DNA from: Candidatus Omnitrophota bacterium
Lineage (GTDB): Bacteria; Omnitrophota; Gorgyraeia; Gygaellales; Profunditerraquicolaceae
DNA length: 64,000 bases
Direction: 5' to 3'
Assembly: GCA_041645145.1 (NCBI GenBank)
Contig: JBAZQO010000001.1
Span: forward strand, 2,327 to 66,326
A program made the translations under genes and the position numbers. Positions 2,841 to 56,853 of the stretch are shown here, piece after piece; the stretch's first letter is position 1, and each line of letters opens with the position of its first letter. The notes beneath the pieces were generated by a model. It did not search any database. It saw only the letters and a program-made list of their open reading frames with translations, and was not told the origin of the DNA.

Positions 2841-4069
2841 AGCGAATGGATCTCTTCCCTTAATTTTCTTTTTAGCCGGCTGATCTCCGAAAGGATGATC
2901 TCTTTGTCTTCCCCGCCGCTTTCCCTTATGCGCCGGAATTTGTTAAAAATACCGGGTAGCCTCCTTTTGAGGAGGTTCGTTACCGAACCCTTGTAAGAAG
3001 AATAGAACCTGTACCTTAATTTCATTTTTATTACCTGGCTCTTTAAAAACTGCAAGGCCTTATTAGTCAGCTTTCGGTAACTGGCGATCCTTTTTACCTT
3101 TTTAGCCTTATCCAATATGTACGCTTTTGAGAATCGGCTGCCGAAAACTTCATCATAACAGCTCATCAGGCACCCGCTGCATCCGTTATTGATAATAGAA
3201 TTGATCAACTTCCTTCTTTTTTCAGACAACCATAATTCATACAGGCTTTCTTCCCTTATATTTCCAATCAGCTTATTATGCGAAGCTTCGATCCAACAAG
3301 GAAATATATCTCCGTTTGAATTAATGGGGCATGAATACCGAAGCGCGCCGCAATTATCCGGATGGAATTTCTTACCGGTTAAATATGCGGGTATTTTAAA
3401 TAAATAGTTTGCTGGATTAGTAGAAATTTTGCGTTCTTGAGAAATATCGATAAATCTGTGGATTATGTCCTCTATCTTCGGAATCTCCCGCTTATCTATT
3501 AAGAATTCACCCGCGCGTGCAGAATCCTTTAAAAAGATTGCATTAAAAGGCTGTAATCTTACGGTGGTAGCTCCGTACTCTCCAGCTATCTCTAAAACGT
3601 AAAGCAAGTCTTCATAATTATACCTTGATACAGTTGAAGCAACAGTAGTCTCTATTTTATATTTCCTGAGGTTGGCCAGGGCAGAGGCCGCTTTATCAAA
3701 ACTGCCGGGGCCCCTTAAGTAATCGTGCGTCCCCTTGGTTCCTTCTATAGAAATATTCACCACATTGGCCCCGGACGCGCTAAGCCTGGAGGCAACCTGC
3801 TCATCGATTAAACACCCGTTCGAAGTAACGCATGCGTTTAAATTATTCTTCTTTGCAAAGAAAATAAGTTCAAAAATATCCTCTCTTAATAGCGGCTCTC
3901 CTCCGCTAAAAACTACAGTCTGCGCTCCTAATCTAGAGGAGTCATTAATGACTTTTTTCCATTGATCAGTAGATAATTCCTCAATTTTTCCGCAAGGAAT
4001 ATCGCACATCCTGCATCGCAAATTACATCTATTGGTGATAGAAAATATGACTTCCTTTAGGTTAAGCAT
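2837..4069 (-). CDS. radical SAM / SPASM-domain protein (paralog 1)
   Basis: CNLRCRMC (CxxxCxxC) near the N-terminus; GGEPLLREDIFELI SAM-binding glycine-rich motif. The C-terminal Cys-rich region (CGALRYSCPINSNGDIFPC...GCSGCLMSC) is consistent with a SPASM or twitch auxiliary Fe-S domain. Confidence 0.75.
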   Translation of the reverse strand: MLNLKEVIFSITNRCNLRCRMCDIPCGKIEELSTDQWKKVINDSSRLGAQTVVFSGGEPLLREDIFELIFFAKKNNLNACVTSNGCLIDEQVASRLSASGANVVNISIEGTKGTHDYLRGPGSFDKAASALANLRKYKIETTVASTVSRYNYEDLLYVLEIAGEYGATTVRLQPFNAIFLKDSARAGEFLIDKREIPKIEDIIHRFIDISQERKISTNPANYLFKIPAYLTGKKFHPDNCGALRYSCPINSNGDIFPCWIEASHNKLIGNIREESLYELWLSEKRRKLINSIINNGCSGCLMSCYDEVFGSRFSKAYILDKAKKVKRIASYRKLTNKALQFLKSQVIKMKLRYRFYSSYKGSVTNLLKRRLPGIFNKFRRIRESGGEDKEIILSEISRLKRKLREEIHSL

Positions 4070-24950: not shown

Positions 24951-25581
24951 GGAGCGGGCAAATTACGCATTTAGGATCCTGCTTGCGGCAGTAATCCTTG
25001 CCCAACCTTACTAAAAGGGCATGGTATTCATTAAACATCTTCACGCTATTTTTAAGATTGCGCATAAAAATATCCTGCACCTGGGCGTAATCAGCTTCCT
25101 CTTTAATTAATCCGTGCCGGGAAAATATTCTTTTGGTGTAAGCATCCACCACGAATACCGGCTTATTCAAAGCATAGAGAAGGATCGAATCCGCTGTTTC
25201 CGGGCCTATTCCGTTTACCGAAAGCAAAAGCTTACGCAGTTGGCGGGGGTTAGCTTGCGACATTTTCTTAAGATCCCCCTTGTAAACCTCAAAAAAGAAC
25301 TTCAGGAACTCTTTAATCCGCCTGGCCTTAATATTATGGTAACCTGCGCTTTTAATCAGCGCGGAAATTTTAGCCGGGCTCATCCGGTAAAGTTTCTCCG
25401 GGCGCAACACTTTTTTAGCCTTAAGCCTGGCTATGGCTTTTTCCACATTCAACCAATTAGTACCCTGGGTAAGGATTGCTCCGATGATAACCTCAAAACT
25501 ATTCTCCGCAGGCCACCAGTGCTGCGGCCCAAATTTAGAATAAAGCCTGCGAAAAATAACCTTTAATTTCCGCTGCATCAA
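24940..25581 (-). CDS. HhH-GPD base-excision DNA glycosylase, endonuclease III-like with C-terminal 4Fe-4S cluster loop
   Basis: Helix-hairpin-helix GPD region LLSVNGIGPETADSILLYAL, catalytic Asp VVDAYTKRIF, and C-terminal Cys ladder CRKQDPKCVICPL. Confidence 0.65.
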   Translation of the reverse strand: MMQRKLKVIFRRLYSKFGPQHWWPAENSFEVIIGAILTQGTNWLNVEKAIARLKAKKVLRPEKLYRMSPAKISALIKSAGYHNIKARRIKEFLKFFFEVYKGDLKKMSQANPRQLRKLLLSVNGIGPETADSILLYALNKPVFVVDAYTKRIFSRHGLIKEEADYAQVQDIFMRNLKNSVKMFNEYHALLVRLGKDYCRKQDPKCVICPLHGQ

Positions 25582-27512
25582 TCAAGTTCCAGAGGGTTAT
25601 AACCGTAATAGGCAAAAATGGCATAAGCAGTCCCGGATACCGAACCGGTATACTTGCCTTTAGGGGTTCTCCAGCCATGCCCGGTATCCACAAAATCCTG
25701 CGTTGCGTACGGCAGGCAGCCTTCCCCCTGGCCCGAAGGAGAAGGGCTGGAAATAATCATATTCCCTAATTGTGCCAGGTAATTATCTGCTTTATCCCGA
25801 TAAGCAGCGGATTTAGCTGTTTGTCCTCCTTTAGAATAATAATCAGCCATAATTTTAAATGATACAGCCATCTGGGCTGTCCATTCGCTTGAGACCACCC
25901 CTCCCCGGGCAACATTGCGCTGCGGCGCAAAATCAAAACCCCGGATCTTAACTGTCTGGCCTCCCGGCCGGATAAAATCGACCTGGGCTTCGCAATTCTC
26001 CTCGACAAACTCCATTATTTTATCCGGGTCCATACCCAAGGTTTTAAGCCTTGCCGGGCCGATAGCGGCAATAGACCAGGCATAGGTATCTGTGGCAATC
26101 GTGGAATCACCTTTACCGCGCTTAACCGGCAGATCCTCCCGGCCATAAGTATTGCGCATCAGCCACCCTAATGTTTTTTCCGCGGCCCGGACATACTTTT
26201 CCTTATTGGTAACTTTAGCGAGCATCTCAAAAAAAGCATAAGCATCCAGATTATGCTCTGTGGAATACCAGCTCATCTGCGGGCCTCCGCGGATACCGCC
26301 ATCAACATCAGAATCCTGCAGCTTGATTATATTCCGGGCAATCTCTTCGGCTATCTCCAGGTAATTCCTGTCTTGGGTTTTCCGGGTATACTGGAGAATG
26401 GCAATACCCAGCCAGATATTCGGTCCGCAGTGCATGACATATTCCGCAGGGGAGCCGGTATCGGCATAATAAACATTAAAAAACCAACCGTTCTCCCTTT
26501 TGGCCTGATCGCTAAAAAAATCCAGCAGCTTCTTTGCCCGGTCATAATCACCGAAGTTATTAAAAATCTGGATCATCAGCGCCTGGTCATAAGTAAACGC
26601 CCAGCTGGCGATATCCTTGTCTCCTTCAAAACTCATTACTAAGCCCGTGCGTGGATTCTGGTGAATTTTAAGCCACTGGTACATCTTGTCCAGGTTTGCC
26701 TTTGTCAGGATTACCTTTTTACTATCCAAGCGCAGGGATTCTTCTTGAGCTGCCTTCTCGTTAATTTGCAACGCAGCCAGTTCCGCTTGAAAAAGATCCC
26801 TTTCCCTAACCAGCCTTAAAATTAAACCATTTAATTCCTTTGTCTTGTCAACGGCAGCAGGCGCCTGAACGCTCTTTGTCTGGGAGGCAGATTTAATTTG
26901 TGAAACCAGCGATTTGATCTTCTGCTGCAAAGCGCCTCTCTGCTGGGCTATCTGGTTTATCTTCTGCCTGGCAAGATCAGACTCATGCAATACGCCGACC
27001 AGCTCCTCAACGAGCATCTTATTCTTTTGGGTCAACTGTATATTTAAATAGGCGCCAAAAGCCAAAAAGAGGGTTAAGCAGGCGATAAACAAGGTTATTA
27101 CCGGTATAAACAGCTTCTTTGCCCGGGCATAACGCATAAGCATGTTATTCTCGGAGGGATTAATCTGTTCGTAGGATAAGCCGATAAGGTAGCGGTTGGG
27201 TGAGCCTGGAATTTCTTTTGTCCAGGCCACGCAGGTAAAAGCGACTATCGGGTTCCTAAATAAAGGCGCCTCTGTCTCTATGGATAATTTAACTTTTTTT
27301 TCTTTGATCAGGTTGAATAAATCGGGAGCAAGGCCGTTTACCGAAAGGCATATGCCACCGCGGCTGATACTGTTGGTAAATCCCTGCAGCCATGGCGAAA
27401 AAAACTGCGACCTATCCGGGCTTTCTAAACGGAACTGCACGGGAAAAACAGTATCCAGGCGGATATACTTTCTGCGCTCAAGGTCAAAATCAATTTTAGT
27501 TTTAAACCACAT
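25578..27512 (-). CDS. PilZ-domain membrane protein with coiled coil and C-terminal (alpha/alpha)6 glycoside-hydrolase-like domain
   Basis: N-terminus RRKYIRLDTVFPVQF...FTNSISRGGICL is the PilZ RxxxR...DxSxxG c-di-GMP-binding signature. One TM helix (LFIPVITLFIACLTLFLAFGAYL) and a ~130-aa heptad-rich segment follow. The ~370-aa C-terminal domain has recurring aromatic/Gly-rich helical hairpins resembling six-hairpin glycosidases. Confidence 0.5.
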   Translation of the reverse strand: MWFKTKIDFDLERRKYIRLDTVFPVQFRLESPDRSQFFSPWLQGFTNSISRGGICLSVNGLAPDLFNLIKEKKVKLSIETEAPLFRNPIVAFTCVAWTKEIPGSPNRYLIGLSYEQINPSENNMLMRYARAKKLFIPVITLFIACLTLFLAFGAYLNIQLTQKNKMLVEELVGVLHESDLARQKINQIAQQRGALQQKIKSLVSQIKSASQTKSVQAPAAVDKTKELNGLILRLVRERDLFQAELAALQINEKAAQEESLRLDSKKVILTKANLDKMYQWLKIHQNPRTGLVMSFEGDKDIASWAFTYDQALMIQIFNNFGDYDRAKKLLDFFSDQAKRENGWFFNVYYADTGSPAEYVMHCGPNIWLGIAILQYTRKTQDRNYLEIAEEIARNIIKLQDSDVDGGIRGGPQMSWYSTEHNLDAYAFFEMLAKVTNKEKYVRAAEKTLGWLMRNTYGREDLPVKRGKGDSTIATDTYAWSIAAIGPARLKTLGMDPDKIMEFVEENCEAQVDFIRPGGQTVKIRGFDFAPQRNVARGGVVSSEWTAQMAVSFKIMADYYSKGGQTAKSAAYRDKADNYLAQLGNMIISSPSPSGQGEGCLPYATQDFVDTGHGWRTPKGKYTGSVSGTAYAIFAYYGYNPLELD

Positions 27513-27588: not shown

Positions 27589-28410
27589 TTAGACAATCTC
27601 AAGGCTCAAAATATTATCTATGCGAAAGGTGCGCTCCTCTTTTTTTAAACAACAATATCCTGCAAGATACTTATGCCCCTTATCCTGTTTTATCTCTTTA
27701 GGGATAACCTGGCGCTCGGTTACTTCAGCGCTATGGGTAGAGAGGTAACGTATCTTTAATGTTGCCTTTAAATCGATGCATTCCCGGATTTTAGAGGCCT
27801 TCTGCTCGTTGAAACTTTCCAGCAAGCCGGGATTAAAAGCAAAAAGGTTGGAGAAGCCGGCAAAATCAGTTATCCCCTTGGCCTGGCAGATAGCTTTGAG
27901 TTTACCAAAAACATCCCAGGTCATCTCCACGTCGGAGAAAGCGCGGTGCTCCTGTTTTGATTTAACCCCCAGCTTATCCGCTACAAACCAAAGCGCGTAA
28001 CGGCTCAAGCCCGGTATAAGCCTTTTAGCCATAGTGAGCAGGTCAAAAACAACCATATTGTTAACCGCAGGAAGAGAGATGAGCTTAAGCTCATTATTCA
28101 AAAAACCTAAATCAAACTCCGCGTTATATGAACAAAGGCAGCTGCCCCGGATAAATTCCAAGAATTGCAGGATAACCTCTTTAGGTTCCCTGGCGCTTTG
28201 CAGCATCTGGAGAGTTATTCTATTTACCGCAAAGGCAGCTTCAGAAACAGGTTGTCCAGGATTAACCAAAGAGGAGAACGTGGCGATTCTCTCCTTGCCT
28301 TTAAACCTTAAGCCCGCTATCTCAACTATGCGGTCTCCGGTTTGCCAATTAAGCCCAGTAGTCTCAGTGTCAAATATAGTAAACTCTACATCATCAATAT
28401 CTTTATGCAT
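27589..28410 (-). CDS. DnaQ-like (DEDDh) 3'-5' exonuclease with C-terminal WYL-like domain
   Basis: Exo I FTIFDTETTGLN, Exo II SYNAEFDLGFL, Exo III H..FSDVEMT. C-terminal ~90 aa: ...KYLAGYCCLKKEERTFRIDNILSLEI resembles the WYL ligand-binding domain core. Confidence 0.6.
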   Translation of the reverse strand: MHKDIDDVEFTIFDTETTGLNWQTGDRIVEIAGLRFKGKERIATFSSLVNPGQPVSEAAFAVNRITLQMLQSAREPKEVILQFLEFIRGSCLCSYNAEFDLGFLNNELKLISLPAVNNMVVFDLLTMAKRLIPGLSRYALWFVADKLGVKSKQEHRAFSDVEMTWDVFGKLKAICQAKGITDFAGFSNLFAFNPGLLESFNEQKASKIRECIDLKATLKIRYLSTHSAEVTERQVIPKEIKQDKGHKYLAGYCCLKKEERTFRIDNILSLEIV

Positions 28411-29299
28411 TCCTGGTCACTATATAAGCGGGAATTAACCGCTCCGGGTGATATGAGAGTTTTGTTTTACGTAAATTCTCCAAGCCCGAATCATCCATAA
28501 TATTAATGTATTTATAACTCTTTAACCCTTCGCAGAACCTGCGGAAGATAAATTGCGCCAGGCCCTTGACAGAAAGGTCGGTTATCTCATAAAGCACGCA
28601 GAATGTATCATAGCTCAACCTATAGCCAAAAGTAAACCCCTTGATTTGTTTATTAACCTTAACGACAATCCCCTCAAAACCCAGCTGCCTGTAATTAGCC
28701 AGGGCGACTTTGATTACCTTACGGTTATCCTCAAGCATCCCGCAATAAATATCGTCACCGCCCTGCCCCTTACGCGCCTGTGCCCAGGAACTAAATAAGC
28801 CTAAACAATCCGCCGCGTCCGCCGGAAGCAACGCCCTTGAATCAAAATCATAATGCTTGATAAAATAATTATAAGAGGCGCGCTGGGATTTAAATTTATT
28901 TCCCCTTAATAGCGCCAAATCGCGACACACACAAAGATAATCCGGATATTTATCTTGAGCCAGATAACCTAAGGCGCGGTAATATCCCAAATCCTGCTGC
29001 CGGACATTTTCAATACGGGAGATATCTTTATTTTTATTAATACCGTCCATAATTTCAAAAGCCTGTTTTATAATTAAAGGGTTTGGCTCTTTTCCCAGCA
29101 CAGGAAGATACATGAAGCAGCCGATCTTATCGCGGAAGAATACGCAAAGGCTGTTTTGGATCAAAACCCATTGGATATCAAAGAGGGCTTTCCAGATGTA
29201 GATATCGGGAAAAGAAAACGCTGCCAGTTCGTGCCTGCCTTGGGCAAGGTATCGATTAAACAGCTTTTGGTCTTTTAAGGTTAGCTTATTCAGTTTCAT
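28403..29299 (-). CDS. DUF2156-like protein (fold related to the aminoacyl-tRNA-dependent C-terminal domain of MprF-type lysyl-phosphatidylglycerol synthases)
   Basis: The N-terminal block LTLKDQKLFNRYLAQGRHELAAFSFPDIYIWK is characteristic of the DUF2156 family. ~298 aa; overlaps the upstream gene by 8 nt. Confidence 0.4.
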   Translation of the reverse strand: MKLNKLTLKDQKLFNRYLAQGRHELAAFSFPDIYIWKALFDIQWVLIQNSLCVFFRDKIGCFMYLPVLGKEPNPLIIKQAFEIMDGINKNKDISRIENVRQQDLGYYRALGYLAQDKYPDYLCVCRDLALLRGNKFKSQRASYNYFIKHYDFDSRALLPADAADCLGLFSSWAQARKGQGGDDIYCGMLEDNRKVIKVALANYRQLGFEGIVVKVNKQIKGFTFGYRLSYDTFCVLYEITDLSVKGLAQFIFRRFCEGLKSYKYINIMDDSGLENLRKTKLSYHPERLIPAYIVTRNA

Positions 29300-29796
29300 G
29301 GGGTGAGCTTTAATTCAGCGACCTCTCTTACTTCTTCATAAGCCTGGATGATCTGCGGGTTATCTTTAAGAATTTTCAGCTGTTTTGGCGAGTTAAGGTA
29401 GGTGGAAAGATAGGTAATATAATCCTGCATCTTTGGGCTGTCTATTGTCTCGACGACATAAGGGCAGTTTAAATCAACGGTCAGAAGCACTTTGCCTTTG
29501 CGCAGATTGATCAGAAAAGGGTAGAGCTGGCATTCAAAGGGCCGCAGATTGTAAATGCGGCATTGGTTATTCGCGTTGTTAAAAAAGGGGCAAATAAATC
29601 CATCGCCGCCAGGATCAGCCACAGCTTGGATACGCCGGTCTATAGATATAGAGGCTGCGGGTATGCCTTCCCTGTCCACCAACTCCTGCATCTCCTCATC
29701 CAATAAGCATGGGCTCCACACTGAATTTGCTTCTTTAAAGCGACAGCAAGAGCGGCATTTAAGGCAAAACTCCTGCGGCACAAATTGTTTGATCAT
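29296..29796 (-). CDS. YkgJ-family putative zinc/iron-chelating CxxCxxCC protein
   Basis: N-terminal CLKCRSCCRF matches the CxxCxxCC motif of PF03692-type proteins. Additional conserved Cys at CPFF, CRIY, CQLY, CPYV. Confidence 0.5.
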   Translation of the reverse strand: MIKQFVPQEFCLKCRSCCRFKEANSVWSPCLLDEEMQELVDREGIPAASISIDRRIQAVADPGGDGFICPFFNNANNQCRIYNLRPFECQLYPFLINLRKGKVLLTVDLNCPYVVETIDSPKMQDYITYLSTYLNSPKQLKILKDNPQIIQAYEEVREVAELKLTP

Positions 29797-29929
29797 TTAA
29801 CAATGCTCCCTCGGCCACCTAAATCCACGGTTAAAATCAATAATTTATCCGCGTTCGGATGGTCATTCACCTCTTTTATCTCCCCAATCCTTAACTCTAA
29901 CTTCCTGAAATCTTCAACAGTAACCATCT
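29795..29929 (-). pseudogene. 44-codon ORF encoding only the N-terminal part of a tRNA-binding (Trbp111/CsaA/MetRS C-terminal) domain - likely gene remnant
   Basis: Minus strand has AGGAGG, 7 nt, then ATG. The ORF encodes MVTVEDFRKLELRIGEIKEVNDHPNADKLLILTVDLGGRGSIVK, which is the conserved start of the OB-fold tRNA-binding domain. It ends at a TGA overlapping the ykgJ-like ATG. It is absent from the ORF track because it is under 60 aa. Coordinates +/-2. Confidence 0.35.
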
Positions 29930-29939
29930 TAAATCCTCC

Positions 29940-31454
29940 TTAGAATTTTAATTCCGCATAAAATTCAATCTGGTAAGCGTTATTCGCCCGGCCATCCCCG
30001 CGCACAAAAGGGCTAAACAGGCTTCCCTCTGCATCATCGCGGCTTTCTTTATAAAACCTGCCCGGGAAAAAACAACCACCCAGAAAACCAACCGTCATAT
30101 GCCTGTTTATCTTATAATCAATATAAAGATCCGCTTCATATCCCAGGTCGCGGGAGAGGTATTTCCCCTGGCCGTCTAAAGTTCCCACCGGACGGTTAAA
30201 TGCCCTTAGATAATAGCCGTACAAACTTACGCAAAGCTTATCCGTAAAATTATAATCAAAGCCTATTGAAGGCATGATTAGGTTTTCAAAATCACCTGAG
30301 AAAAATGTTTTTGGCCGCGGTACTCCGTAATTCAGACCATAACCTCCACCCATCGCTACAATAGGAAGCATATCTGCATTACTGCTGCTTATTGTATCCC
30401 CCAGGTTCATGTTGGTGGGGGAAAAATAACTAAAAGCGCGGTTTTTCCCCGAAACATACAGTGCCGTCGGGTCCCCCGCCATATCCGGCGTTACTTTATT
30501 GCCCGAGCAAAGCAAGAACTGCAATTCCGGGACGAATTTTCCCAGCACATAATCCAATCCGGAATAAAACATGTATCCGGTGTGCGCGATATCTTTATAA
30601 GCGCTATCCTGGCTCTGGGCGTATCCGAAATTATGCGCTGCCTCTAACTTTAAAGAGAAATCCTCTCCCTTAAACTTCCAGGCAGTGCCAAATGTCCCCA
30701 ACAGGTCTCTTTTTATGGGCGCCGCAAAAAGATTATCCCGCTTGCCATTAGAGGTATAATCCGCCAACATGCCTACATACGGCCAAAAAGTCTGCTTACC
30801 CGCGGTGATCTTAACGTCCGTAGAGAAGAAATTAGCCGCGTTAGGTTCGTATTTCTGGCCCTGCTCATTTTCCTGTTTAATATACGGGCCTAATTGATTT
30901 TTGTAAACCAGGTCCGAGCGGCAATAATAAAGGCGCCAGAGTAAATCTTGCGTTTCTTTATACAGGGTAATCCCGTAATTTTCATAATTGCCGTTAAGAC
31001 TGAAACCATTGCCTACTTCGTAGATATACAGCCCGGCTTTAAGGCCAAAGTTACCAAATATCCGGGAATCAAACCAGAATTCTTCAATCTGCGGAAGCAG
31101 TTCTGCGTTACGGTATTTCTCAATCCTGCCCCCGGAATTAATCAGCGTGTTGTGGATAAAAATAGGCGCGCTGTAATCATAAGGGCCGTTGCGCTCAAGC
31201 TTGATAAAAAACTTGTTTCCTGAATCTTTAAAATCCGCGCTAAAAGCAAAACTGTAATCTATCCCCAGATAGGTGGTATGGTCATCTTTATTGTGGCTAT
31301 CCAGATCCGCTACGTTCTTAAAACTTACCAGGTCGGTGCGCAAATAGGTATCTAATCCCAACGCCAGATGCTCAGTATTCAGCAGTTCGTAGCTGTGTGC
31401 GCAAGGAATAAAACTCAGGGCTAAAATTAAAACAAGCCAGGATTTTCTTAACAT
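29940..31454 (-). CDS. outer-membrane beta-barrel protein (secreted, C-terminal Phe)
   Basis: Signal peptide MLRKSWLVLILALSFIPCAHS. Alternating amphipathic beta-strand pattern rich in Y/G/N, and a terminal ...YAELKF aromatic residue typical of BamA-dependent OMPs. Confidence 0.5.
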   Translation of the reverse strand: MLRKSWLVLILALSFIPCAHSYELLNTEHLALGLDTYLRTDLVSFKNVADLDSHNKDDHTTYLGIDYSFAFSADFKDSGNKFFIKLERNGPYDYSAPIFIHNTLINSGGRIEKYRNAELLPQIEEFWFDSRIFGNFGLKAGLYIYEVGNGFSLNGNYENYGITLYKETQDLLWRLYYCRSDLVYKNQLGPYIKQENEQGQKYEPNAANFFSTDVKITAGKQTFWPYVGMLADYTSNGKRDNLFAAPIKRDLLGTFGTAWKFKGEDFSLKLEAAHNFGYAQSQDSAYKDIAHTGYMFYSGLDYVLGKFVPELQFLLCSGNKVTPDMAGDPTALYVSGKNRAFSYFSPTNMNLGDTISSSNADMLPIVAMGGGYGLNYGVPRPKTFFSGDFENLIMPSIGFDYNFTDKLCVSLYGYYLRAFNRPVGTLDGQGKYLSRDLGYEADLYIDYKINRHMTVGFLGGCFFPGRFYKESRDDAEGSLFSPFVRGDGRANNAYQIEFYAELKF

Positions 31455-31540
31455 CTTCCGGATTTTGGGATACCTTCGCTTAAAGACTTAGGTTTATGCT
31501 AACACTTGCGGCGGGAAAACTCAAGGAAAACAAAATTAAG

Positions 31541-31616
31541 CGGGGCCGACGAGATTCGGACTCGCGATCTCCTCCGTGACAGGGAGGCGCTTTAAACCAG
31601 GCTAAGCTACGACCCC
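31541..31616 (-). tRNA. tRNA-Asp (anticodon GTC)
   Basis: Minus-strand cloverleaf with a 7-bp acceptor GGGGTCG/CGGCCCC containing one G-U pair. D-arm GCTT/AAGC. Anticodon arm CCTCC-CTGTCAC-GGAGG with anticodon GTC. 5-nt variable loop. T-arm GCGAG-TCCGAAT-CTCGT. Discriminator G, no encoded CCA. Confidence 0.8.
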
Positions 31617-31690: not shown

Positions 31691-31767
31691 TGGTGGGCGA
31701 TAGAGGACTTGAACCCCTGACCCTTTGCGTGTAAAGCAAATGCTCTAACCAACTGAGCTAATCGCCC
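31691..31767 (-). tRNA. tRNA-Val (anticodon TAC)
   Basis: Reverse complement reads GGGCGATTAGCTCAGTTGGTTAGAGC ATTTGCTTTACACGCAAAG GGTCAGGGGTTCAAGTCCTCTATCGCCCACCA. Anticodon loop TTTACAC gives TAC. Canonical GTTCAAGTC T-arm. CCA encoded. Confidence 0.85.
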
Positions 31768-49150: not shown

Positions 49151-49218
49151 AAAGGGACGCTTAATTGGAGACCTTCTTATTGGCTGATAAACCTTTGGGA
49201 AGGTTAGCGTCCCTTTTA
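49151..49218 (-). terminator. long-range stem (12 bp) enclosing an inner hairpin, immediately 3' of the giant ORF stop
   Basis: aaaagggacgct ...45 nt... agcgtccctttt. The inner part has ccttc..gaagg pairing. On the minus strand it is followed by UUAUUUG. Confidence 0.45.
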
Positions 49219-52200
49219 TTGAGCTATCAATTGTGGCTCTTTAGCGAGAACCTGCACCTTTGCTAATGCCAGTCTTAATTCATTTACCGGTTTATCCGAT
49301 TCAAGTAGAACCAGGATTTCTCTTAAAGATGATTCCGTGTAACAGGCCTTTTCTTCCTCCTGCCTTAGGATATCCGCAATGCAGGCAAGAACCTTATCTA
49401 CCTGGCTATTTGGATCTTGCAAAGACAAAAGATATTCTCTTAAGCGTTCGCAGGAGGGAGCTATGCCTGAATTTGCCATCCTCTCTATCTCCTGCCATTC
49501 TTTATCAGAAACAGGGACAGGCCCCTTCGGGGACAGTCCCTGTTTTAAAGCTTTTGATGCCGCCATCGGCTGGATAACCGTATTCTTGGACAATGACCGC
49601 ATATCAATTCCGCCGACATTTTCTTCAAGTGGGCTAGCGGTCTTAGTTTTATCATATACTGCATCATATTGCTCCAGGGTGGCACCGTTGATTCTCCGCC
49701 AATGCCAACGCTCTCCTCCATCAATAATTTCCTTTGTTGGATCCTCGTAGCCATCGAAATGTGGCGCAAATCTTCCTCCAGCTCCGGTAACAACAGGCGA
49801 GGTATAAATATCACTGAACGGTTTACCTCGTTCTTCAATCTCTTTTTTTACAACTGCTTGAATAAAATTAGCAGGTATATTGTTAATACCGGATTCGCGT
49901 AAGCTTCTTACTTCTTTTTTCTTTCTCTCAATATATTCCAACTTCAAAATTTCTCCTTCTTGTCGAATATGCGTATAGACAGCTACACTATTATTAACAA
50001 CTCCAAAATATAGTTTTCCGCCTGTTGATGGCCTAATTAAAGCCAATGCCTGGTCATATTGTTTGCCCGACAATTCTCCAAGTAGACTGATTTCAATTTC
50101 ATTGTCATTTGCGGCGATAGCAACATCTTGCCCAAGCTGTTGCTCTAGGCTAGCAGATCGATCTTGCGTGGCAACCGGCGAGCCGGCTGACTCACCGTAT
50201 ATGCGTTTCTCAGTATAATTATACTTCTGGCCATCATTTAGGCTGCCAACTTTTTCTTTTAACCTCCAGAAATCGCCATTTACCGGATTTATGATATTTT
50301 CGTAGAGATCCTTTATTTGTTCGTCATTTTGACAGGAAAAAAATGCTCTGCGATTTTTCACATATCTTGCATCGTTCCCCCAATAATACTCTAATGACAA
50401 ATATAACTTAATCAGACGGCTATAATATGCTCCTTCGGGATTTTTGGTAACATCAATGAGGCTGTTTAAGTCGGTTTTTAGTATGGCTATTTGGTTCAGG
50501 ATTACTTGCTCGCGTTGCCCCGAAGAATGAAGCCAGTTTACGACCTGGATATTTATGTCCATGTTGTCAGCCAATCCCGATATCCCCATGGAACTAACTG
50601 ATTGTTTAATTTTATCGGATAATTCGCGCTTGAACCCAAATTCCTCGCCTCGTTTTGCCCAGGGCACAGCAATATCTATATCTCTGATAGAATCTAGGGG
50701 CACCAACCCCGATTCATCCGCCAAATATCTGGCGCTGCCTACCAAGACAGCATCGCTACCTGCAGCTTCCTTCAACATAGATTCAAATAATCTTATGTTC
50801 AACCAAATGCTCCCGTCTTCTTTAGCTATAGTTAATCCGCTAACAGGAGAACTGGCGGGCTTGCCTGCAACCGGCGAGCCGGCGGATTGCTGCTGCATCC
50901 GACCAGCTATTACTTCTCCATAATTATTTTTAATCCAGGACAATATGTAATCCCTTCGATGTTTCAAGGTGTCTTGCAAATAAGTCCGGTCAACTCTGCT
51001 CATGCGTATACTATCCACTAAGGTGTTAATAGCGTCATCAGTTAGCCGTGTTTTTAAAACCGCTCCTTGTTCAATAATATCTTTTGGGGTTAGTCCATAT
51101 GCTTCATAGGCCTGGCGCATACCATAGCCTAATCTCTCAAAATTATCACCTCTTTCGAGTTCTCGAACGGGAGCCTGTGGCCCAAACAAATCTTTGTCCT
51201 TTCTTTGTCCGCGTGCACGGAAAAGTAGTGCGCCTCCATTATCTATCCTATAGAGCAACCCTCCGGAAATCAATGTATTGCGATCTATAGCGTAAGGAAT
51301 ATCCCAGTTAGCCATTAAGGTATCTGCCAAAAATCCATGGATAACCAGCTGCTTATGTGCCTCGAGAGTAGCTGTCATGTCAAGGGGCAATATCCTAGAG
51401 GCATGCCCATAGTTTCCGGCGACTTTAACGATTTTTGTTTCAGGAACAGGGATTCCGAGAACTCTGTACAACTTATTTGCCAAATCCTCTACCCAAATAT
51501 GTGACTCCTCTTCATGCTGGGCAAACTTCACATAATATGGTGAAGGACCGCTATCTGTAGGAACGGTGAATTCTGCTCCGGGATTGCTTCCTTTTTGTTC
51601 GCCTGTCTTTAGAGAATAATCCCATACTTCAACTGGAACTGAATAGTTGAAGTTTGAACGGATAGAATCATATTCATCAGCGCTGAATAATAACGTTCCT
51701 TGCAAATTATAAAGAGGAATATAAAAGCCATTTTCTACAATTGCTCTCTTGACCTTTTCCAATGTCTTATCGGGACTACGCAAGACGATTGATGCTATCT
51801 CAGTTGCTGGCATTCCTCCTAAAAGTAGCGAGTGATGAGAAGAAGGCCCATACTCTTTCCCTTCCTCCCAACATCCCTTTCCGCGATGATATACATACCA
51901 TAACTGACCATCTGACCCTAATAAACCTCTACCCCCATAACCGTTTGAAAGTGATGCGGTGATAATACGCTCCGTCTCCTGGTGCAGCCCTATAAAATCC
52001 CGCGTAAGACGGGTGAAATCTACATGGAATGGATATGAATCGGTTGTCGCTCCTTCACCCAATGCCTCTCTAGGAAGATTGCCGTTTCTAAGCACAGATT
52101 CAAGGACATCAACTGTCGAACCATGCAAATAATCTCCGTCTTGCAAACTTAATTTCTTAATGACGACTTGCCGGTTTCGTGCATCTGCTTCGGCTTTACT

Positions 52201-55200
52201 TTTCTCGTCCTGACTTGTTTCTATTGTTTGTTTTAAATAGTGCCGAAAAATCCACGGCTTATAGTCAGTTTCCAGTTCCGAAAATGGAATAGAATGAATT
52301 TGTCCAGACTCTAGCTGGGTAATCAAGGACTGATTAACAACTATGCCCTCTAATCGCGTCTTTGTGTTCGGATTGTTCTGTTTAGCCGCTATATGTTCTG
52401 CGACAATATCAGTCAAAGGAACAACTGTCCCATCTTCAAATGCTATCTCAGTTAACGGATACTCAGACGCAGCAGATCTTAATTGCGAACCAAGCCGCGT
52501 CTCAGCAAAAAGAAACAATTGCTGCCAATACGCTGTGGGCTTCGTAAATATTGATTCAATTACCTGGGCTCTAGCTACCGCATTATCATTGGAGAAAATA
52601 TCCTGCATGATAAGCATGCGGTTTTCATGTAAAGGGCCACCAACTTGCAAAAGACTAAAAAGATTTGGTGCGTATTCCGATAGAGATACGATTTCATTAA
52701 TCTTGTCTGGCCTGCGCGCCAGATATGCCAACACAGCTTTATCTAAATAAAAATCTTGATGTACGTATAACTTCCCGTTCGGCTCAAAAAGATTCATAAG
52801 CAACATCTGTACGGCTTTATTAAATAAAACATGGTGCTTCTCGTCCGCTGTCCTGTAATCCCACCTTGCTTTCAATTGATAATCAGTAGAGCCTAACCAC
52901 TTCAAGATTCCATTAGTTAACGCCTGCGATAGAAAACCCTGCGCTTGCTGGATTGTATAGAGATGATAAAAGAACGGCCGTAGGCCTTCATTCCTATTAG
53001 CGTAAAATCGCATCAAATTCTCATACGGATCTATAATAAAAATCCTATCGTAGCCTCTCGGGCTATCCTTATTGTTTTCTATTTCATAAAATAAGTGGTA
53101 CTGAAAATCGGGGGATATCTTTTTAATTTCGTAAAGCGCACTGATTATGTCGGCTTTTTGTTCATATATCCCTGGCAAAATCTTATAATGCTCAATAGAG
53201 AACAAGTATCCAAGGGGTCTCAAATCTTCTATGCATTGTACAATTTCATCTCGGTTAGCTAACATAATATACTGTTTAAGATATTCAGGATCATAGAAGC
53301 CCCCATATCCGGTTTCATAGATATCGCGGACTCTTTTAAGAAATGAAATTGTTTTTTTCAAGGCCTGAATCTTTTGTCTAGTGGAAGCGTGAGGAGGAAA
53401 ATAATCATCCCCTAAAGCGGGGATGAATAAACTAATCTCGGAGTCTGCAATACCCTCCTTTTCTATAGTAGCCAAAAACATCTGGGGTGCAAGAGCACGG
53501 ATTTTCTCCTGCAGGTAATCTGGCACATGTGTGAAACTACGCAGGACGACCTCCACAGCGGCAAAGTTATTCGGATCATCGAAGTATCGTGATTTAAAGA
53601 CGACCATGTCTAAAAGCTCTGCCTGCAACCGATGATTACGCGAAGTCCGTAAAATATCTTCCATAATTGCGTATCCTAGGCTCAAATTTACATCCTTGAG
53701 GCGCTCGAGAAGCGCCATAACAAAAAACTGTTTAGCTTCATTATATCCTCCTCTCCCATCTCTCTCCCGGAGGAAAGTTATACACATCTCTGCTAAATTT
53801 TGCTTAATTTGCTTATAAATAGGATTGTCTACAAGAGATGCGGACATTGTTCTATCCTTAACAATACCTGGCTGCATACCGATATCTTTACAGGCGCTCT
53901 CAATCGCTTCCCGCAAAGATAAAACTGTGTCTCTTCTTCCTATTTCCCAAATTGTCTCCTCTCTGCCTTCTTGATAAGCAAACATTAACTCATCAAATTT
54001 GTCTATGTTAGGAGAAAAATACCTTTTCTCAAACGCTTCTTTTAATCGTTTCCATTCAGGATTGTCAATCATCAACGCGCTATAAGTATTAGGGTGAGTG
54101 CGTACTGTCTCAATGATTTCTATTAAACCCGGGATATTTTTCTGCTTTAAGGTAATTCGTTCGCTTTCAGTCAGAGACAATATGAAATAGGTCACCCGCC
54201 CTGGGAGAAAAGGATACTCTCCTGAATAGCCCGGCTCTCTCCAAGAATTCATAATAATTAAAGGTGCCAATTCTACTTTTAATCCCGGGCTTTCTTCTGC
54301 TAACCAGAATAATCGATATCCTAAGTCGATTGATTCATTTGTATGTTCTTTTTCCTCAAGCAGATCATTAACCGTTCGCTTAGCAAGTGTTCGCTCAAGC
54401 GCATCGAACGTATAGTCGCCAAACATACTTTTGATTTTAGGGTTAGCCTTGAATGTACTCCAGCGTTGCTTGAAGCTTTCATTTATAAAATGATCTTTAA
54501 GAATTGCTTTAGGCATCAATGAGATATCCAACGGCAAATTCTCTCGGTGTTCGCTAATATGCCGTTCAACATTGGCCGTGATATTTCCTGATCCTATCCG
54601 GATAAATTCTTTTCTCATTGTATTTTGTTTAGCTTCGCTTTGGCCTAATGTGTCTCTGATTATTTCTTTTACTTGGTTCACCAAAGATATGGGTAAATTT
54701 TCCGCTTCAAGAGCATTGATAAAACTCAAGAGCAATTCATGCGCATGTTGTCTTATCAATAAATCGGTTATTCTCCCATATGCTTTATCTTGGTCGCCCC
54801 GTTGTAGACCGATCTGTCCGCCTAATTCACTTAGTTTAAAACTACACTCTCGATTTAATTCATCGAGCCTGTTATTCCGCTGGCGAACGCGATCGCTCTC
54901 TTCCTGGCTTCCCCCCCATCCACTATATATTGCGGCAATTCCTTCTCTTAGCTGTTCTCTTGCAAGCGCCAAGTACTCCTTGGCCTGCTCAGGAGTTATA
55001 TTTCCTTTTCGCTCTAACTCACGAAGCCCCGGCATTATTTTCTTATCTATCAATTCTTCATTTAATTCTGCGTATAAGCTATCATTATTTACTAAAGACT
55101 CTTCCGCCCGAGTATATTTTGCCAAAACCCCAGTTATAATGCTCTTTATTTTATCAAGATATTCCACACATTTATCGTCCATTTCGTTTTGCAACGACTC

Positions 55201-56853
55201 TGTTCTTGAGTTGAGCTGATTAATCTCATTGGCGATTTCTTGTTTCTTATTTTCTAACTGCAACTGGAGAGTATCAATTTCTGACTGCATTCGTGTTATA
55301 TTTTGCTTTGTGTCTTTTCGCATCCCCCAACTCTTGAACCAAATCAACCAGGGCTTATTTTTTTCATCACGCAAAATCTGTTTTTCCTTTTCTATATTAC
55401 CTTGGATTTCTTCTATTTTTGTTTTAGATATAAAATCTGCCTGTTCTCTTTGTTTTATCAAGATAGCTATTCTCTGTTCACGTGCTTTCTTCTCTTGTTC
55501 TAATCCTTTAATTCTTTCTTTAAGCCCAGCAATGTTTATTAGATCATTTTTAAAAACCGCTTCTATCTCTATGCCGATAGTACCTAAGGGAAAACTGGTC
55601 GACTTGGACTGTAAAGTCGCCGACGAGCTGGCGGCGGGCGGCTGCTCAACCGCAGATGAAGCTAGCTCTGTTTCCCCATCAAAAGGATTGCTTACAATAC
55701 CACCTTTAAATTTAAAGCCTAATCCATATGGCCGAATTAACGCCTTAGCATCTCTCCGCAGTACAAGTCCTTGCGTAATCGCTGAAGATACTGATGCCAA
55801 AGCAATGCCACCACTCATATAGCTCCTGATAGTCTGACCATAGGGAGTGTAGCGCGGCTCTTTAATGTTATATTCTCCTTGCTGGAAAGAAGCTTTGTAG
55901 GCATTAAAGTAAGTTGTTTTAGACCAAGAGGTTTTGGAGGTTAAACCAGTCAGGTTGTGTCTGTCTATGAGGTAGGGATATACGCCTGATTTACCGTAGA
56001 ATTTCTGTTTAAACCACTGCGCCAGGATAAGTGAATAGTAAACCTGCCTTAAGGGAGCGTATCTTTTGGAGGAATTAATTTCTTTGGTTAACTTAGGAAT
56101 AATGGTTTCTCTGATGAGTTGTGAGGAGTATTCGTTCAGAGCTTTGGAGCGCTCATCCTTGAAATTATAGGTAGATGAATCCTTAAGATAGTCTTGCTCA
56201 AGCATGACCTTCAGCGTGGCTTTGTAGATGTAAGCATTGTCAGAGCTCTCTCTGATGATGATTTCATCCGGGACTATCCATGGACGAGTGAGCGTAGGAA
56301 TGGTTATATTTTCAGAACCGTAGAGCTCTTCTGCTTTCTTGTAAAGCTTGTCCCAATAGTCTTTTCCTTCTAGAGTTTGGGGGGAGGTAAAATTAGCGGT
56401 ATCTTTCTTTAGCTGGAGGTCTGCCTCAAGCAGAATCTTTCCTACGTCAGTTTCGCCCAGTTCGCTATCTATAATGTTGTCTTCTGCATCTGGCCTTAAA
56501 TTTACCCAAAAGGCTTCATTGGGCAAGGATATGCCGATGAAAAAATAATTGAGCAGGGTTTTGGTTTCTTGTTGCAAACTCTCCTTAGGGTCAGTTCCCT
56601 TCGGGGACAGACCCTTCACAAAATCTCCTTTGTCTAGAAGCAGATTAAAGTTGTTGACGCTTGGGTCATAAGAGAGGTACCTTAAATGAAGAGGCCGGAA
56701 TCTGTCCTGAATGAAGCTATTTCGCAGGGCAAGAAAATGGCTTGAGAGATCCAACTCTCCGGCAATTTGGGCAAAGCCGGATTGCTCAAATACCATGAAA
56801 AAACATATGGCAATAGCAATGATTTTAAATAATTTACTAGATTTAATCTTCAT
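49216..56853 (-). CDS. giant secreted/surface protein (2545 aa), largely alpha-helical with coiled-coil segments; contains an atypical kinase-like motif region
   Basis: Signal peptide MKIKSSKLFKIIAIAICFFMVFEQSGFAQIA. Heptad-rich region around residues 430-560. Low-complexity linkers (PPAASSSATLQS; GESAGSPVA twice). Region ~1700-1790 HGFLADTLMANWD...LLYRIDNGGALLFRARG has the D-x4-N ... D-x-G spacing seen in protein-kinase-like folds. Confidence 0.6.
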   Translation of the reverse strand: MKIKSSKLFKIIAIAICFFMVFEQSGFAQIAGELDLSSHFLALRNSFIQDRFRPLHLRYLSYDPSVNNFNLLLDKGDFVKGLSPKGTDPKESLQQETKTLLNYFFIGISLPNEAFWVNLRPDAEDNIIDSELGETDVGKILLEADLQLKKDTANFTSPQTLEGKDYWDKLYKKAEELYGSENITIPTLTRPWIVPDEIIIRESSDNAYIYKATLKVMLEQDYLKDSSTYNFKDERSKALNEYSSQLIRETIIPKLTKEINSSKRYAPLRQVYYSLILAQWFKQKFYGKSGVYPYLIDRHNLTGLTSKTSWSKTTYFNAYKASFQQGEYNIKEPRYTPYGQTIRSYMSGGIALASVSSAITQGLVLRRDAKALIRPYGLGFKFKGGIVSNPFDGETELASSAVEQPPAASSSATLQSKSTSFPLGTIGIEIEAVFKNDLINIAGLKERIKGLEQEKKAREQRIAILIKQREQADFISKTKIEEIQGNIEKEKQILRDEKNKPWLIWFKSWGMRKDTKQNITRMQSEIDTLQLQLENKKQEIANEINQLNSRTESLQNEMDDKCVEYLDKIKSIITGVLAKYTRAEESLVNNDSLYAELNEELIDKKIMPGLRELERKGNITPEQAKEYLALAREQLREGIAAIYSGWGGSQEESDRVRQRNNRLDELNRECSFKLSELGGQIGLQRGDQDKAYGRITDLLIRQHAHELLLSFINALEAENLPISLVNQVKEIIRDTLGQSEAKQNTMRKEFIRIGSGNITANVERHISEHRENLPLDISLMPKAILKDHFINESFKQRWSTFKANPKIKSMFGDYTFDALERTLAKRTVNDLLEEKEHTNESIDLGYRLFWLAEESPGLKVELAPLIIMNSWREPGYSGEYPFLPGRVTYFILSLTESERITLKQKNIPGLIEIIETVRTHPNTYSALMIDNPEWKRLKEAFEKRYFSPNIDKFDELMFAYQEGREETIWEIGRRDTVLSLREAIESACKDIGMQPGIVKDRTMSASLVDNPIYKQIKQNLAEMCITFLRERDGRGGYNEAKQFFVMALLERLKDVNLSLGYAIMEDILRTSRNHRLQAELLDMVVFKSRYFDDPNNFAAVEVVLRSFTHVPDYLQEKIRALAPQMFLATIEKEGIADSEISLFIPALGDDYFPPHASTRQKIQALKKTISFLKRVRDIYETGYGGFYDPEYLKQYIMLANRDEIVQCIEDLRPLGYLFSIEHYKILPGIYEQKADIISALYEIKKISPDFQYHLFYEIENNKDSPRGYDRIFIIDPYENLMRFYANRNEGLRPFFYHLYTIQQAQGFLSQALTNGILKWLGSTDYQLKARWDYRTADEKHHVLFNKAVQMLLMNLFEPNGKLYVHQDFYLDKAVLAYLARRPDKINEIVSLSEYAPNLFSLLQVGGPLHENRMLIMQDIFSNDNAVARAQVIESIFTKPTAYWQQLFLFAETRLGSQLRSAASEYPLTEIAFEDGTVVPLTDIVAEHIAAKQNNPNTKTRLEGIVVNQSLITQLESGQIHSIPFSELETDYKPWIFRHYLKQTIETSQDEKSKAEADARNRQVVIKKLSLQDGDYLHGSTVDVLESVLRNGNLPREALGEGATTDSYPFHVDFTRLTRDFIGLHQETERIITASLSNGYGGRGLLGSDGQLWYVYHRGKGCWEEGKEYGPSSHHSLLLGGMPATEIASIVLRSPDKTLEKVKRAIVENGFYIPLYNLQGTLLFSADEYDSIRSNFNYSVPVEVWDYSLKTGEQKGSNPGAEFTVPTDSGPSPYYVKFAQHEEESHIWVEDLANKLYRVLGIPVPETKIVKVAGNYGHASRILPLDMTATLEAHKQLVIHGFLADTLMANWDIPYAIDRNTLISGGLLYRIDNGGALLFRARGQRKDKDLFGPQAPVRELERGDNFERLGYGMRQAYEAYGLTPKDIIEQGAVLKTRLTDDAINTLVDSIRMSRVDRTYLQDTLKHRRDYILSWIKNNYGEVIAGRMQQQSAGSPVAGKPASSPVSGLTIAKEDGSIWLNIRLFESMLKEAAGSDAVLVGSARYLADESGLVPLDSIRDIDIAVPWAKRGEEFGFKRELSDKIKQSVSSMGISGLADNMDINIQVVNWLHSSGQREQVILNQIAILKTDLNSLIDVTKNPEGAYYSRLIKLYLSLEYYWGNDARYVKNRRAFFSCQNDEQIKDLYENIINPVNGDFWRLKEKVGSLNDGQKYNYTEKRIYGESAGSPVATQDRSASLEQQLGQDVAIAANDNEIEISLLGELSGKQYDQALALIRPSTGGKLYFGVVNNSVAVYTHIRQEGEILKLEYIERKKKEVRSLRESGINNIPANFIQAVVKKEIEERGKPFSDIYTSPVVTGAGGRFAPHFDGYEDPTKEIIDGGERWHWRRINGATLEQYDAVYDKTKTASPLEENVGGIDMRSLSKNTVIQPMAASKALKQGLSPKGPVPVSDKEWQEIERMANSGIAPSCERLREYLLSLQDPNSQVDKVLACIADILRQEEEKACYTESSLREILVLLESDKPVNELRLALAKVQVLAKEPQLIAQ

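Follow-up and report, generated by a model that had tools for sequence, protein, structure and literature searches.

The subject of this study is a cluster of four minus-strand genes in a 64-kb window (64,000 nucleotides, nt) from a metagenome-assembled genome of Candidatus Omnitrophota; coordinates refer to this window and amino acid (aa) numbers to its proteins. The genes encode, in order of transcription, a fragment of a tRNA-binding protein (tRNA_bind), a CxxCxxCC (YkgJ-type) protein, a DUF2156/LPG_synthase_C protein and a DEDDh exonuclease with a C-terminal WYL domain (Table 1). The overlapping CxxCxxCC and DUF2156 genes are, by prediction, the halves of one two-domain enzyme (CxxCxxCC N-terminal, DUF2156 C-terminal), because the two are found as a single polypeptide in many relatives. 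The 44-codon open reading frame (ORF) at the head of the cluster is a strain-level in-frame deletion allele of a free-standing gene of the methionyl-tRNA synthetase (MetRS) C-terminal/Trbp111 type. As a reading of the whole, to which about an even chance is given, the split metal-cluster/DUF2156 enzyme would perform tRNA-dependent aminoacyl transfer to an acceptor that does not span the membrane, a Trbp111-type protein would serve as its helper in Omnitrophota, and the strain would be a natural helper knockout.

All four ORFs (44, 166, 298 and 273 aa) were found again, at exactly the coordinates described in an annotation made earlier from the sequence alone (hereafter the original prediction); the junctions, read from the sequence, are in order ATGA, ATGA and an 8-nt overlap. 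The domain assignments made at that time (DEDDh exonuclease with WYL, DUF2156, CxxCxxCC, tRNA_bind) were borne out by Pfam, every match exceeding its curated cut-off, and the strong ribosome-binding site claimed for the 44-codon ORF is indeed present: its GGAGG follows immediately on the stop codon that ends the 504-aa gene upstream.

A profile search, exhaustive over 1.84 billion representatives, gave 4,512 relatives, 299 of them (50%-identity representatives) at E ≤ 1e-30. Fusions made up 59 of the 149 best new representatives (40%; 351–545 aa, mostly 420–545 aa); in these proteins DUF2156 is C-terminal and the N-terminal domain matches a hidden Markov model built from the Omnitrophota CxxCxxCC protein. 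Pfam found PF03692 together with PF09924 in nine of the ten fusions tested, and an AlphaFold2 model of a natural fusion was obtained with a mean predicted local distance difference test score (pLDDT) of 91 and a predicted template modelling score (pTM) of 0.73. Gene fusion is classical evidence of shared function, and here it points to the CxxCxxCC protein, not the exonuclease, as the true and probably obligate partner of DUF2156; this partner had been overlooked in the original prediction. The decayed "fused" tRNA-handling module suggested there finds no counterpart, none of the 149 best family representatives carrying a tRNA_bind domain.

Linkage was surveyed by a metagenome scan with the fused-family alignment, to which five fusion loci already fetched were added. 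Loci of one group, low in guanine plus cytosine (GC) and Omnitrophota-like, are split and occasionally fused, with tRNA_bind upstream and the exonuclease usually downstream. The other group consists of fused forms, mostly on contigs of 57–64% GC (median 0.59 vs 0.42), and belongs to other lineages, since its contigs are high in GC. The pair CxxCxxCC plus DUF2156 is accordingly best regarded, from these comparisons, as the universal core, with tRNA_bind and the exonuclease as Omnitrophota-specific additions. Linkage beyond the phylum was also sought at the Bacteroides ortholog represented by the structure 2hqy and was rejected; no cluster genes adjoin it. As a separate observation, a lysine-2,3-aminomutase-like radical-SAM gene was seen near 13 loci of the high-GC fused lineage (upstream of the fused gene in L132, L135, L136, L139, L140, L143, L146, L147, L157, L165, L166, L171 and L172), a glutaredoxin/GST_N-like small protein near 12 and an unannotated protein of 384–547 aa near 22; the aminomutase-like neighbour might hint at a substrate of the β-lysine type, or reflect mere synteny within one clade.

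Conservation was assessed in one genome per GTDB species; 80 loci were obtained, nearly all labelled Omnitrophota, with DUF2156 at 52–77% identity. Cluster members were scored per locus with phmmer, and the counts are of assessable loci. The order tRNA_bind, CxxCxxCC, DUF2156, DEDDh exonuclease is kept across the 80 species-level loci, and the flanks vary. The CxxCxxCC gene lies beside DUF2156 in 73/73 loci; full-length tRNA_bind is present in 72/73, the exonuclease in 73/76 (54 with and 19 without WYL), the porin-like gene in 35/59 and an adjacent PilZ gene in 38/72. Median core intergenic gaps are −1, 4 and 1 nt. The locus is a vertically inherited, translationally coupled operon in its Omnitrophota version, and the 504-aa porin-like gene is a lineage-variable flank between tRNA-Asp and the cluster, outside the conserved core. 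The exonuclease is absent in L053, L068, L080 and L092 and fragmented in L018; in L068 the CxxCxxCC–DUF2156 pair alone remains.

Among distant Omnitrophota loci with a fused enzyme, tRNA_bind stands directly 5′ of the enzyme and overlaps it, and the outer flanks differ: L091 reads RF-1-domain protein, tRNA_bind, fusion, exonuclease-WYL, PabB, PabC, and L092 reads PhoU, tRNA_bind, fusion, PabB, PabC. In L156 and L167 the tRNA_bind gene is likewise directly upstream of the enzyme amid unrelated flanks. The suspicion that a tRNA-binding gene beside an aminoacyl-tRNA-transferase fold is no coincidence of one genome was thereby strengthened: the adjacency is found in 72 of 73 species and persists where the flanks are entirely different. 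Two further features of these loci were recorded. In L068 (3022–5402), L091 (6244–8484) and L092 (5379–7495), three otherwise different Omnitrophota contexts, the genes that come after the cluster are PabB-like (chorismate-binding) and PabC-like (class IV aminotransferase). In L091 a 136-aa RF-1-domain protein (3274–3684), of the size of an ArfB-type peptidyl-tRNA hydrolase, abuts tRNA_bind on its upstream side, a further tRNA-related neighbour in one lineage.

Where the window has the 44-codon ORF, a complete PF01588 gene of 106 aa stands at exactly that place in relatives that are 96%, 79% and 66% identical, in the order porin-like gene, tRNA_bind, CxxCxxCC, DUF2156, exonuclease; the original prediction had asked whether a full-length Trbp111-like gene occupies this spot elsewhere, and such a gene was thus found, in all but one of the assessable related species. 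DNA alignment with the relative of 95–96% identity gave a single clean in-frame gap of 186 nt in the window gene. The junction reads ...GATTTAGGTGGCCG^AGGGAGCATTGTTAAATGA (with the longer left flank, ...GGTGGCCG^AGGGAGCATTGTTAAATGA); codons 40–101 (62 of 106) are deleted and codon 39 becomes a hybrid Arg codon. The 44-aa product therefore consists of residues 1–39 and the in-frame last five residues, GSIVK (102–106), of the ancestral 106-aa protein. The earlier description of the ORF as the first ~40 residues only was right as to residues 1–39 and incomplete as to the end, where GSIVK is also present. Being in frame, the deletion alters neither the reading of the last codons nor the ATGA overlap with the CxxCxxCC gene, and coupling to the intact downstream genes is preserved. 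A frameshift hiding a longer tRNA-binding ORF, another earlier suggestion, is contradicted by the alignment, the lesion being an internal deletion of 186 base pairs; tRNA_bind remnants in an alternative frame inside the CxxCxxCC gene were ruled out by the same clean gap.

The window ORF covers 29 of 96 model positions and does not encode a complete OB fold (oligonucleotide/oligosaccharide-binding; ~100 aa), which the intact orthologs of the relatives do encode; its product is almost certainly inactive, because the deletion takes out most of that fold. Neither the deleted 186 nt nor a second tRNA_bind copy is present in the 64-kb window. The intact 106-aa relative scored 126.9 bits (cut-off 116.65) with TIGR00399 metG_C_term ("methionine--tRNA ligase subunit beta"), and its nearest solved structures are the MetRS C-domain 1mkh (1e-32), Trbp111 1pyb (1e-24) and YgjH 3ers, CsaA being much weaker. 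With a mean identity of 78%, the tRNA_bind protein shows the strongest conservation among the four, which makes the deletion allele an outlier rather than a stage of general decay of the gene. Separately, the 96% relative has between its porin-like gene and tRNA_bind an extra segment of ~167 nt (L003, 4118–4297), missing in the window, with two tandem GC-rich hairpin-like repeats of ~45 nt (CCTTGTGGGCTAACACCCGGCCTTAAAGGA..GGCCGGTGT); it may be a small mobile element or one resembling repetitive extragenic palindromic (REP) sequences.

An alignment of the CxxCxxCC protein with 79 relatives (80 sequences) shows eight cysteines (C11, C14, C17, C18, C69, C79, C89 and C111), each kept in at least 97%. 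A similar motif with eight conserved cysteines is described for FliB, a [4Fe-4S] lysine N-methyltransferase dependent on S-adenosylmethionine (PMC8598068), and for DpdM, a YkgJ homolog according to its authors, which methylates the amine of dPreQ1 and in which two 4-Cys metal sites were modelled (bioRxiv 10.1101/2023.04.13.536721). By analogy with both proteins, the CxxCxxCC module may bind a metal or an Fe-S cluster; a methyltransferase role is suggested by analogy only. Orthology to FliB was ruled out by the lack of an NCBIfam match, and for a phage origin or a relationship to DpdM no meaningful PHROG match was obtained.

The AlphaFold2 model of the DUF2156 protein (pLDDT 89, pTM 0.88) has the tandem-GNAT fold. 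Foldseek returned, in this order, 2hqy (template modelling score, TM, 0.84), MprF synthase domains (TM ~0.6–0.66), Sbb17/Sba18 and, from rank 24, FemX; MprF C-domains, Sbb17/Sba18 and FemX were matched at probability 1.00, and the functionally characterised proteins in the top 21 are all aminoacyl-tRNA-dependent transferases (MprF domains and Sbb17/Sba18). The original assignment of an MprF-like aminoacyl-tRNA-transferase fold agrees with this and with the PF09924 score. The family is defined by a positive helix between the GNAT halves that binds the tRNA acceptor stem (PMC6103681; PMC8913301). The helix at this position (aa 136–149, within GNKFKSQRASYNYFIKH) is basic, at least 97% of 81 aligned sequences share its K137 and R140, and an Arg matching the R140 position of the helix is invariant in 47 fused relatives; it is a putative acceptor-stem binder, the role being taken from PMC6103681. 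The protein is net basic (44 K+R vs 31 D+E). Its 298 aa comprise the DUF2156 domain only, without a transmembrane segment (maximal 19-residue Kyte-Doolittle hydropathy 1.26), and hydropathy gave no such segments in the neighbouring cluster proteins or in the fusions. The N-terminal multi-helix flippase domain of MprF proper is missing, and the protein is not an MprF, because it has no membrane segment.

When the exonuclease is aligned with 74 relatives (75 sequences), D14, E16, D100, H155 and D160 (Exo I DxE, Exo II D, Exo III Hx4D) each show conservation of 97% or more. The protein scored 95.7 bits with the dnaq family model TIGR00573 of NCBIfam (cut-off 71.5); the ε-subunit equivalogs were not reached (TIGR01406, 98.3 vs 222.7; NF004316, 102.9 vs 196). 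The best PHROG match is "DNA polymerase exonuclease subunit" (7.5e-39). A linker motif FxxF[S/L]xLF[A/S/G][F/I/L] (aa 183–192; 27835–27864; FSNLFAF in the window) is conserved and kept also in the relatives without WYL; it is positioned like the clamp-binding peptide of E. coli ε, whose QTSMAF it resembles only loosely. The WYL tail is judged from its complete domain match to be genuine, an accessory module apparently lost in part of the clade.

Upstream of the cluster lie tRNA-Val and tRNA-Asp genes, also overlooked in the original prediction. The tRNA-Asp gene is upstream on the same strand in 37/56 relatives and, in loci without the porin-like gene, within 270 nt of the tRNA_bind start in 11/24. 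The likely ancestral layout is tRNA-Val, tRNA-Asp, tRNA_bind, CxxCxxCC, DUF2156, exonuclease, the porin-like gene having been inserted later. Rfam scan of the window gave four tRNAs only, with no riboswitch or T-box near the cluster. The CCA ends were considered as a hint to exonucleolytic tRNA maturation and are uninformative (encoded in tRNA-Val, not in tRNA-Asp). The tRNA-gene neighbourhood accords with the tRNA theme; inherited synteny would explain it equally well.

From the anatomy, conservation, fusions and fold, which were established here, we infer the following mechanism. The DUF2156 domain would bind the acceptor stem of an aminoacyl-tRNA through the conserved basic helix and would move the aminoacyl group onto a hydroxyl or amine of a non-ribosomal acceptor; this acceptor would be soluble or at the membrane surface, because the enzyme lacks both a flippase and a transmembrane domain. 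Its CxxCxxCC module would bind or present the acceptor, or carry out a coupled metal-dependent step; the analogy with FliB and DpdM suggests N-methylation of the new amine as a candidate. More (aminoacyl-)tRNA would be made available locally by the tRNA-binding protein, a job comparable to that of the aminoacyl-tRNA synthetase genes fused to or co-clustered with other such enzymes (LysX, ErdS, VlmL/VlmA). The DnaQ-type DEDDh exonuclease follows this core, usually with a WYL tail that would bind nucleic acid; its role is the weakest part of any unified model. A more far-reaching version, which we hold to be possible but less likely than not, is that the CxxCxxCC module (Fe-S or Zn) and DUF2156, split or fused, form an undescribed class of tRNA-dependent non-ribosomal aminoacyl-transferases in which the metal module is obligatory, for example N-modifying the aminoacylated lipid or metabolite; in Omnitrophota a dedicated Trbp111-type hand-over protein and co-transcription with tRNA genes would have been added, the donor possibly being Asp-tRNA(Asp), since the gene of this tRNA is the ancestral neighbour, and the strain would be a natural knockout of tRNA delivery.

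Several results weigh against the aminoacyl-transfer reading. No member of this DUF2156 subfamily has been characterised, and the nearest solved structure, 2hqy, has no assigned function; the link to transferases consists of the Pfam family model and fold similarity at TM ~0.6 and 9–16% identity. Sequence profiles of the subfamily reached only 2hqy in the PDB, never MprF, VlmA or FemX; a bridge to these three was sought also with the diverse fused-family profile and was not found even at E ≤ 10. The likeness of the CxxCxxCC protein to FliB and DpdM consists of the motif and the authors' statements, with no significant match in NCBIfam or PHROGs. The Omnitrophota loci all share ancestry, and the adjacency counts are non-independent events. 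Outside the phylum the neighbours are absent: fused forms of the high-GC group have neither tRNA_bind nor the exonuclease within 4 kb (41/45 assessable), and the Bacteroides 2hqy ortholog has no tRNA_bind, CxxCxxCC or exonuclease gene nearby, its neighbours being LrgAB and a GNAT acetyltransferase; the enzyme as such therefore needs neither tRNA_bind nor the exonuclease. The strain keeps the other three genes intact after the loss of tRNA_bind, which suggests that the tRNA-binding protein is dispensable, and its sequence fits a generic cofactor like the MetRS β-subunit. The exonuclease resembles a DNA proofreading domain, has no obvious role in aminoacyl transfer and is missing or degraded in the five loci named above.

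Much of this is accommodated by the main rival, which we consider quite possible though short of probable: CxxCxxCC and DUF2156 alone cooperate, tRNA_bind is a general MetRS-β/Trbp111-type cofactor, the exonuclease is a housekeeping proofreading or repair nuclease of the DnaQ family whose WYL domain binds single-stranded DNA, and an old operon downstream of tRNA genes has simply stayed unbroken in this phylum. It agrees with the "methionine--tRNA ligase subunit beta" score of the intact protein and its best matches to MetRS C-domains, with the TIGR00573 score and the best matches of the exonuclease to PolC exonuclease and phage DNA polymerase exonuclease subunits, with the linker peptide standing where E. 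coli ε has its clamp-binding motif, with an HhH-GPD DNA glycosylase gene two genes downstream, and with both kinds of loss, that of tRNA_bind in the strain and that of the exonuclease in L053, L068, L080 and L092 (degraded in L018), as well as with the fused enzymes of other lineages that lack both neighbours. Mere synteny is harder to reconcile with the tight start/stop overlaps and short median gaps, with the persistence of tRNA_bind directly 5′ of the enzyme amid unrelated outer flanks (L091, L092, L156, L167) when roughly half the relatives no longer have the porin and PilZ flanks, and with the known recruitment of tRNA-supply partners by DUF2156 enzymes (LysX, ErdS, VlmL/VlmA). Were the 2hqy-like DUF2156 protein not tRNA-dependent, it would be an acyl-CoA tandem-GNAT acyltransferase, or a non-catalytic scaffold acting with the cysteine-cluster protein, in a coincidental tRNA neighbourhood. 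The functionally unassigned 2hqy as the only close solved relative, the ordinary GNAT acetyltransferase adjoining the Bacteroides ortholog, acyl-CoA tandem-GNAT enzymes among the fold matches (2wpw, 3n7z) and the lack of a sequence-profile link to any proven aminoacyl-tRNA transferase speak for such an enzyme; we judge it improbable in view of a PF09924 score three times the gathering threshold, the higher rank of aminoacyl-tRNA transferases over acyl-CoA enzymes among the fold matches, the basic and conserved inter-GNAT helix (K137, R140; invariant Arg in the fused family), the net basic charge, and the linkage to a tRNA-binding protein and tRNA genes kept across the Omnitrophota clade.

That the exonuclease-WYL protein and its neighbours form an anti-phage defence or ligand-sensing nuclease system is scarcely credible. 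The idea of a ligand-regulated nuclease came from the original prediction and draws on the frequency of WYL domains in defence regulators; PADLOC did match the protein to cas-associated DEDDh, WYL domain and PDC-S48 models. These matches are generic and at the domain level only, the other three cluster proteins match no PADLOC model, no complete PADLOC system was found, and the WYL tail is dispensable, being absent in 19/73. The exonuclease, moreover, holds a fixed chromosomal position in 73/76 related species (43–84% identity) among housekeeping genes (V-ATPase, tRNA, glycosylase and peptidase), and integrase or mobile-element signatures were not seen around the locus; the defence reading was rejected. 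There is, finally, the question whether the 44-codon ORF arose as an artefact of assembly, an intact 106-codon gene being present in the real genome, as the metagenomic origin and the full gene in all other species might suggest. The junction recurs in a second assembly of the same strain (L005; MEGAHIT k141; 7,427 nt at 100% identity); the contig there stops 18 nt past it, which leaves some room for an artefact, but the junction was obtained independently and reads therefore span it. No direct repeat that might cause collapse was seen at the breakpoints in the relative's sequence, and the gap is exactly 186 nt and in frame. An artefact is thus quite improbable; the deletion is taken as genuine, though possibly polymorphic within the population.

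Table 1. Features of the gene cluster and its upstream flank in the 64-kb window.
Feature	Position	Strand	Evidence or remark
tRNA-Val(TAC) gene	31691–31767	minus	normally 55–250 nt upstream of tRNA-Asp
tRNA-Asp(GTC) gene	31540–31616	minus	co-oriented with cluster; sigma-70-like promoter match directly 5′
Outer-membrane β-barrel-like (porin-like) protein, 504 aa, signal peptide	29940–31454	minus	weak Alginate_exp match
GGAGG ribosome-binding site	29935–29939	minus	7 nt 5′ of ATG of the 44-codon ORF; read directly
tRNA_bind allele, 44 aa	29927–29793	minus	Pfam tRNA_bind 31.2 bits, model positions 1–29 of 96 only
Deletion junction, codons 40–101 gone	29811–29812	minus	DNA alignment with close relative
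CxxCxxCC (YkgJ-type) protein, 166 aa	29796–29296	minus	Pfam PF03692 35.7 bits, cut-off 23
DUF2156/LPG_synthase_C protein, 298 aa	29299–28403	minus	PF09924 83.1 bits, cut-off 27.5, aa 47–294
Exonuclease-WYL protein, 273 aa	28410–27589	minus	RNase_T 116.4 bits (aa 12–168) and WYL 44.7 bits
DEDDh exonuclease domain, DnaQ/PolC-type, ~aa 1–175	27886–28410	minus	RNase_T, TIGR00573, PHROG
C-terminal WYL domain, aa 206–272	27595–27795	minus	PF13280 44.7 bits, model positions 4–70 of 70, cut-off 21.8

Other features of the window were noted as follows. The N-terminus of the porin-like protein reads MLRKSWLVLILALSFIPCAHS. The gene downstream of the cluster (25578–27512, minus) encodes 644 aa with a PilZ-like N-terminus, one transmembrane helix, a coiled coil and a GH76-like/six-hairpin glycosidase-like C-terminus, all its matches being weak and below the Pfam cut-offs. 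A dense cluster at 1527–22177 (minus) contains eight radical-SAM genes (two SPASM, one methyltransferase-fused, one B12-binding and one GT2-radical-SAM fusion) together with GT2, GT4 and GT1 glycosyltransferases, an ABC exporter, a TPR protein and an amine oxidase, and has the look of a locus that makes a heavily modified glycan or lipid of the cell surface. The GyrA gene (59660–63415, minus; 1,251 aa) is split by an intein with a LAGLIDADG homing-endonuclease domain. For a 2,545-aa ORF (49216–56853, minus) Pfam gave nothing at E ≤ 1e-5; Omnitrophota are known to encode giant proteins.

The domain families of the cluster are each known already. In the literature search no description was found of the pairing or fusion of PF03692 with PF09924 or of its linkage in an operon with a free-standing tRNA-binding protein and with tRNA genes, of a Trbp111-type gene in an operon with an enzyme of aminoacyl-tRNA-transferase fold, or of a DnaQ-WYL fusion. 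Enzymes that draw aminoacyl-tRNA out of translation (MprF, Fem, L/F-transferase, VlmA, ErdS/ErgS) have a part in the make-up of membranes, cell walls and natural products; to our knowledge, the substrates of most DUF2156 proteins are unknown. The large subfamily identified here always couples DUF2156 to an eight-cysteine putative metal module, often by fusion; in one phylum, whose bacteria are ultra-small and for the most part uncultured, the pair is also linked to a free-standing tRNA-binding protein and to tRNA genes. Its two or three proteins form a defined system for expression and assay, and may give a first way into the function of the small YkgJ/CxxCxxCC proteins, which are widespread and uncharacterised; the 44-codon ORF taken alone is an ordinary strain-level deletion allele.

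Comparison with known systems gave the following picture. The nearest solved relative of the DUF2156 protein is 2hqy of Bacteroides thetaiotaomicron (profile E = 4e-38, TM 0.84, 26% identity, same length). Freestanding DUF2156 proteins with demonstrated aminoacyl-tRNA transferase activity are the fungal ErgS (PMC8913301) and VlmA/Ady7 of Streptomyces, the vlm cluster encoding its own seryl-tRNA synthetase, VlmL (PMC9379638). Like these, the window protein is a lone soluble PF09924 tandem-GNAT domain with a basic inter-GNAT helix and neither a flippase nor a fused aminoacyl-tRNA synthetase, and the dedicated tRNA-supply gene of the vlm cluster is comparable to the tRNA-binding protein here; unlike these, it has a CxxCxxCC partner, no direct sequence relationship is detectable, and nothing at this locus points to the acceptors of ErgS and VlmA (ergosterol, alkyl-hydroxylamines). 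With MprF, and with LysX and ErdS, which are fused to a synthetase, it shares the Pfam family, the fold and the logic of a transferase joined to a tRNA-handling module; it differs from MprF in the absence of the 14-helix flippase and in an identity of only 9–16%, and from LysX and ErdS in that the tRNA-handling partner is a separately encoded 106-aa OB-fold protein. The intact form of that partner in the relatives is of the same free-standing OB-fold tRNA-binding type as Trbp111, the MetRS C-terminal domain, E. coli YgjH and CsaA, whereas the window allele, unlike the Trbp111/MetRS-C family, keeps residues 1–39 and 102–106 only. The CxxCxxCC protein resembles FliB and DpdM in its N-terminal CxxCxxCC followed by four more cysteines, eight in total in the same layout as described, and is far shorter than FliB. 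The exonuclease shares all DEDDh motifs with the DnaQ/PolC proofreaders and, unlike ε, has a WYL domain in place of the C-terminal α-binding segment; this domain is complete, as in the WYL-domain proteins PafBC, PIF1-WYL and Cas13d WYL1.

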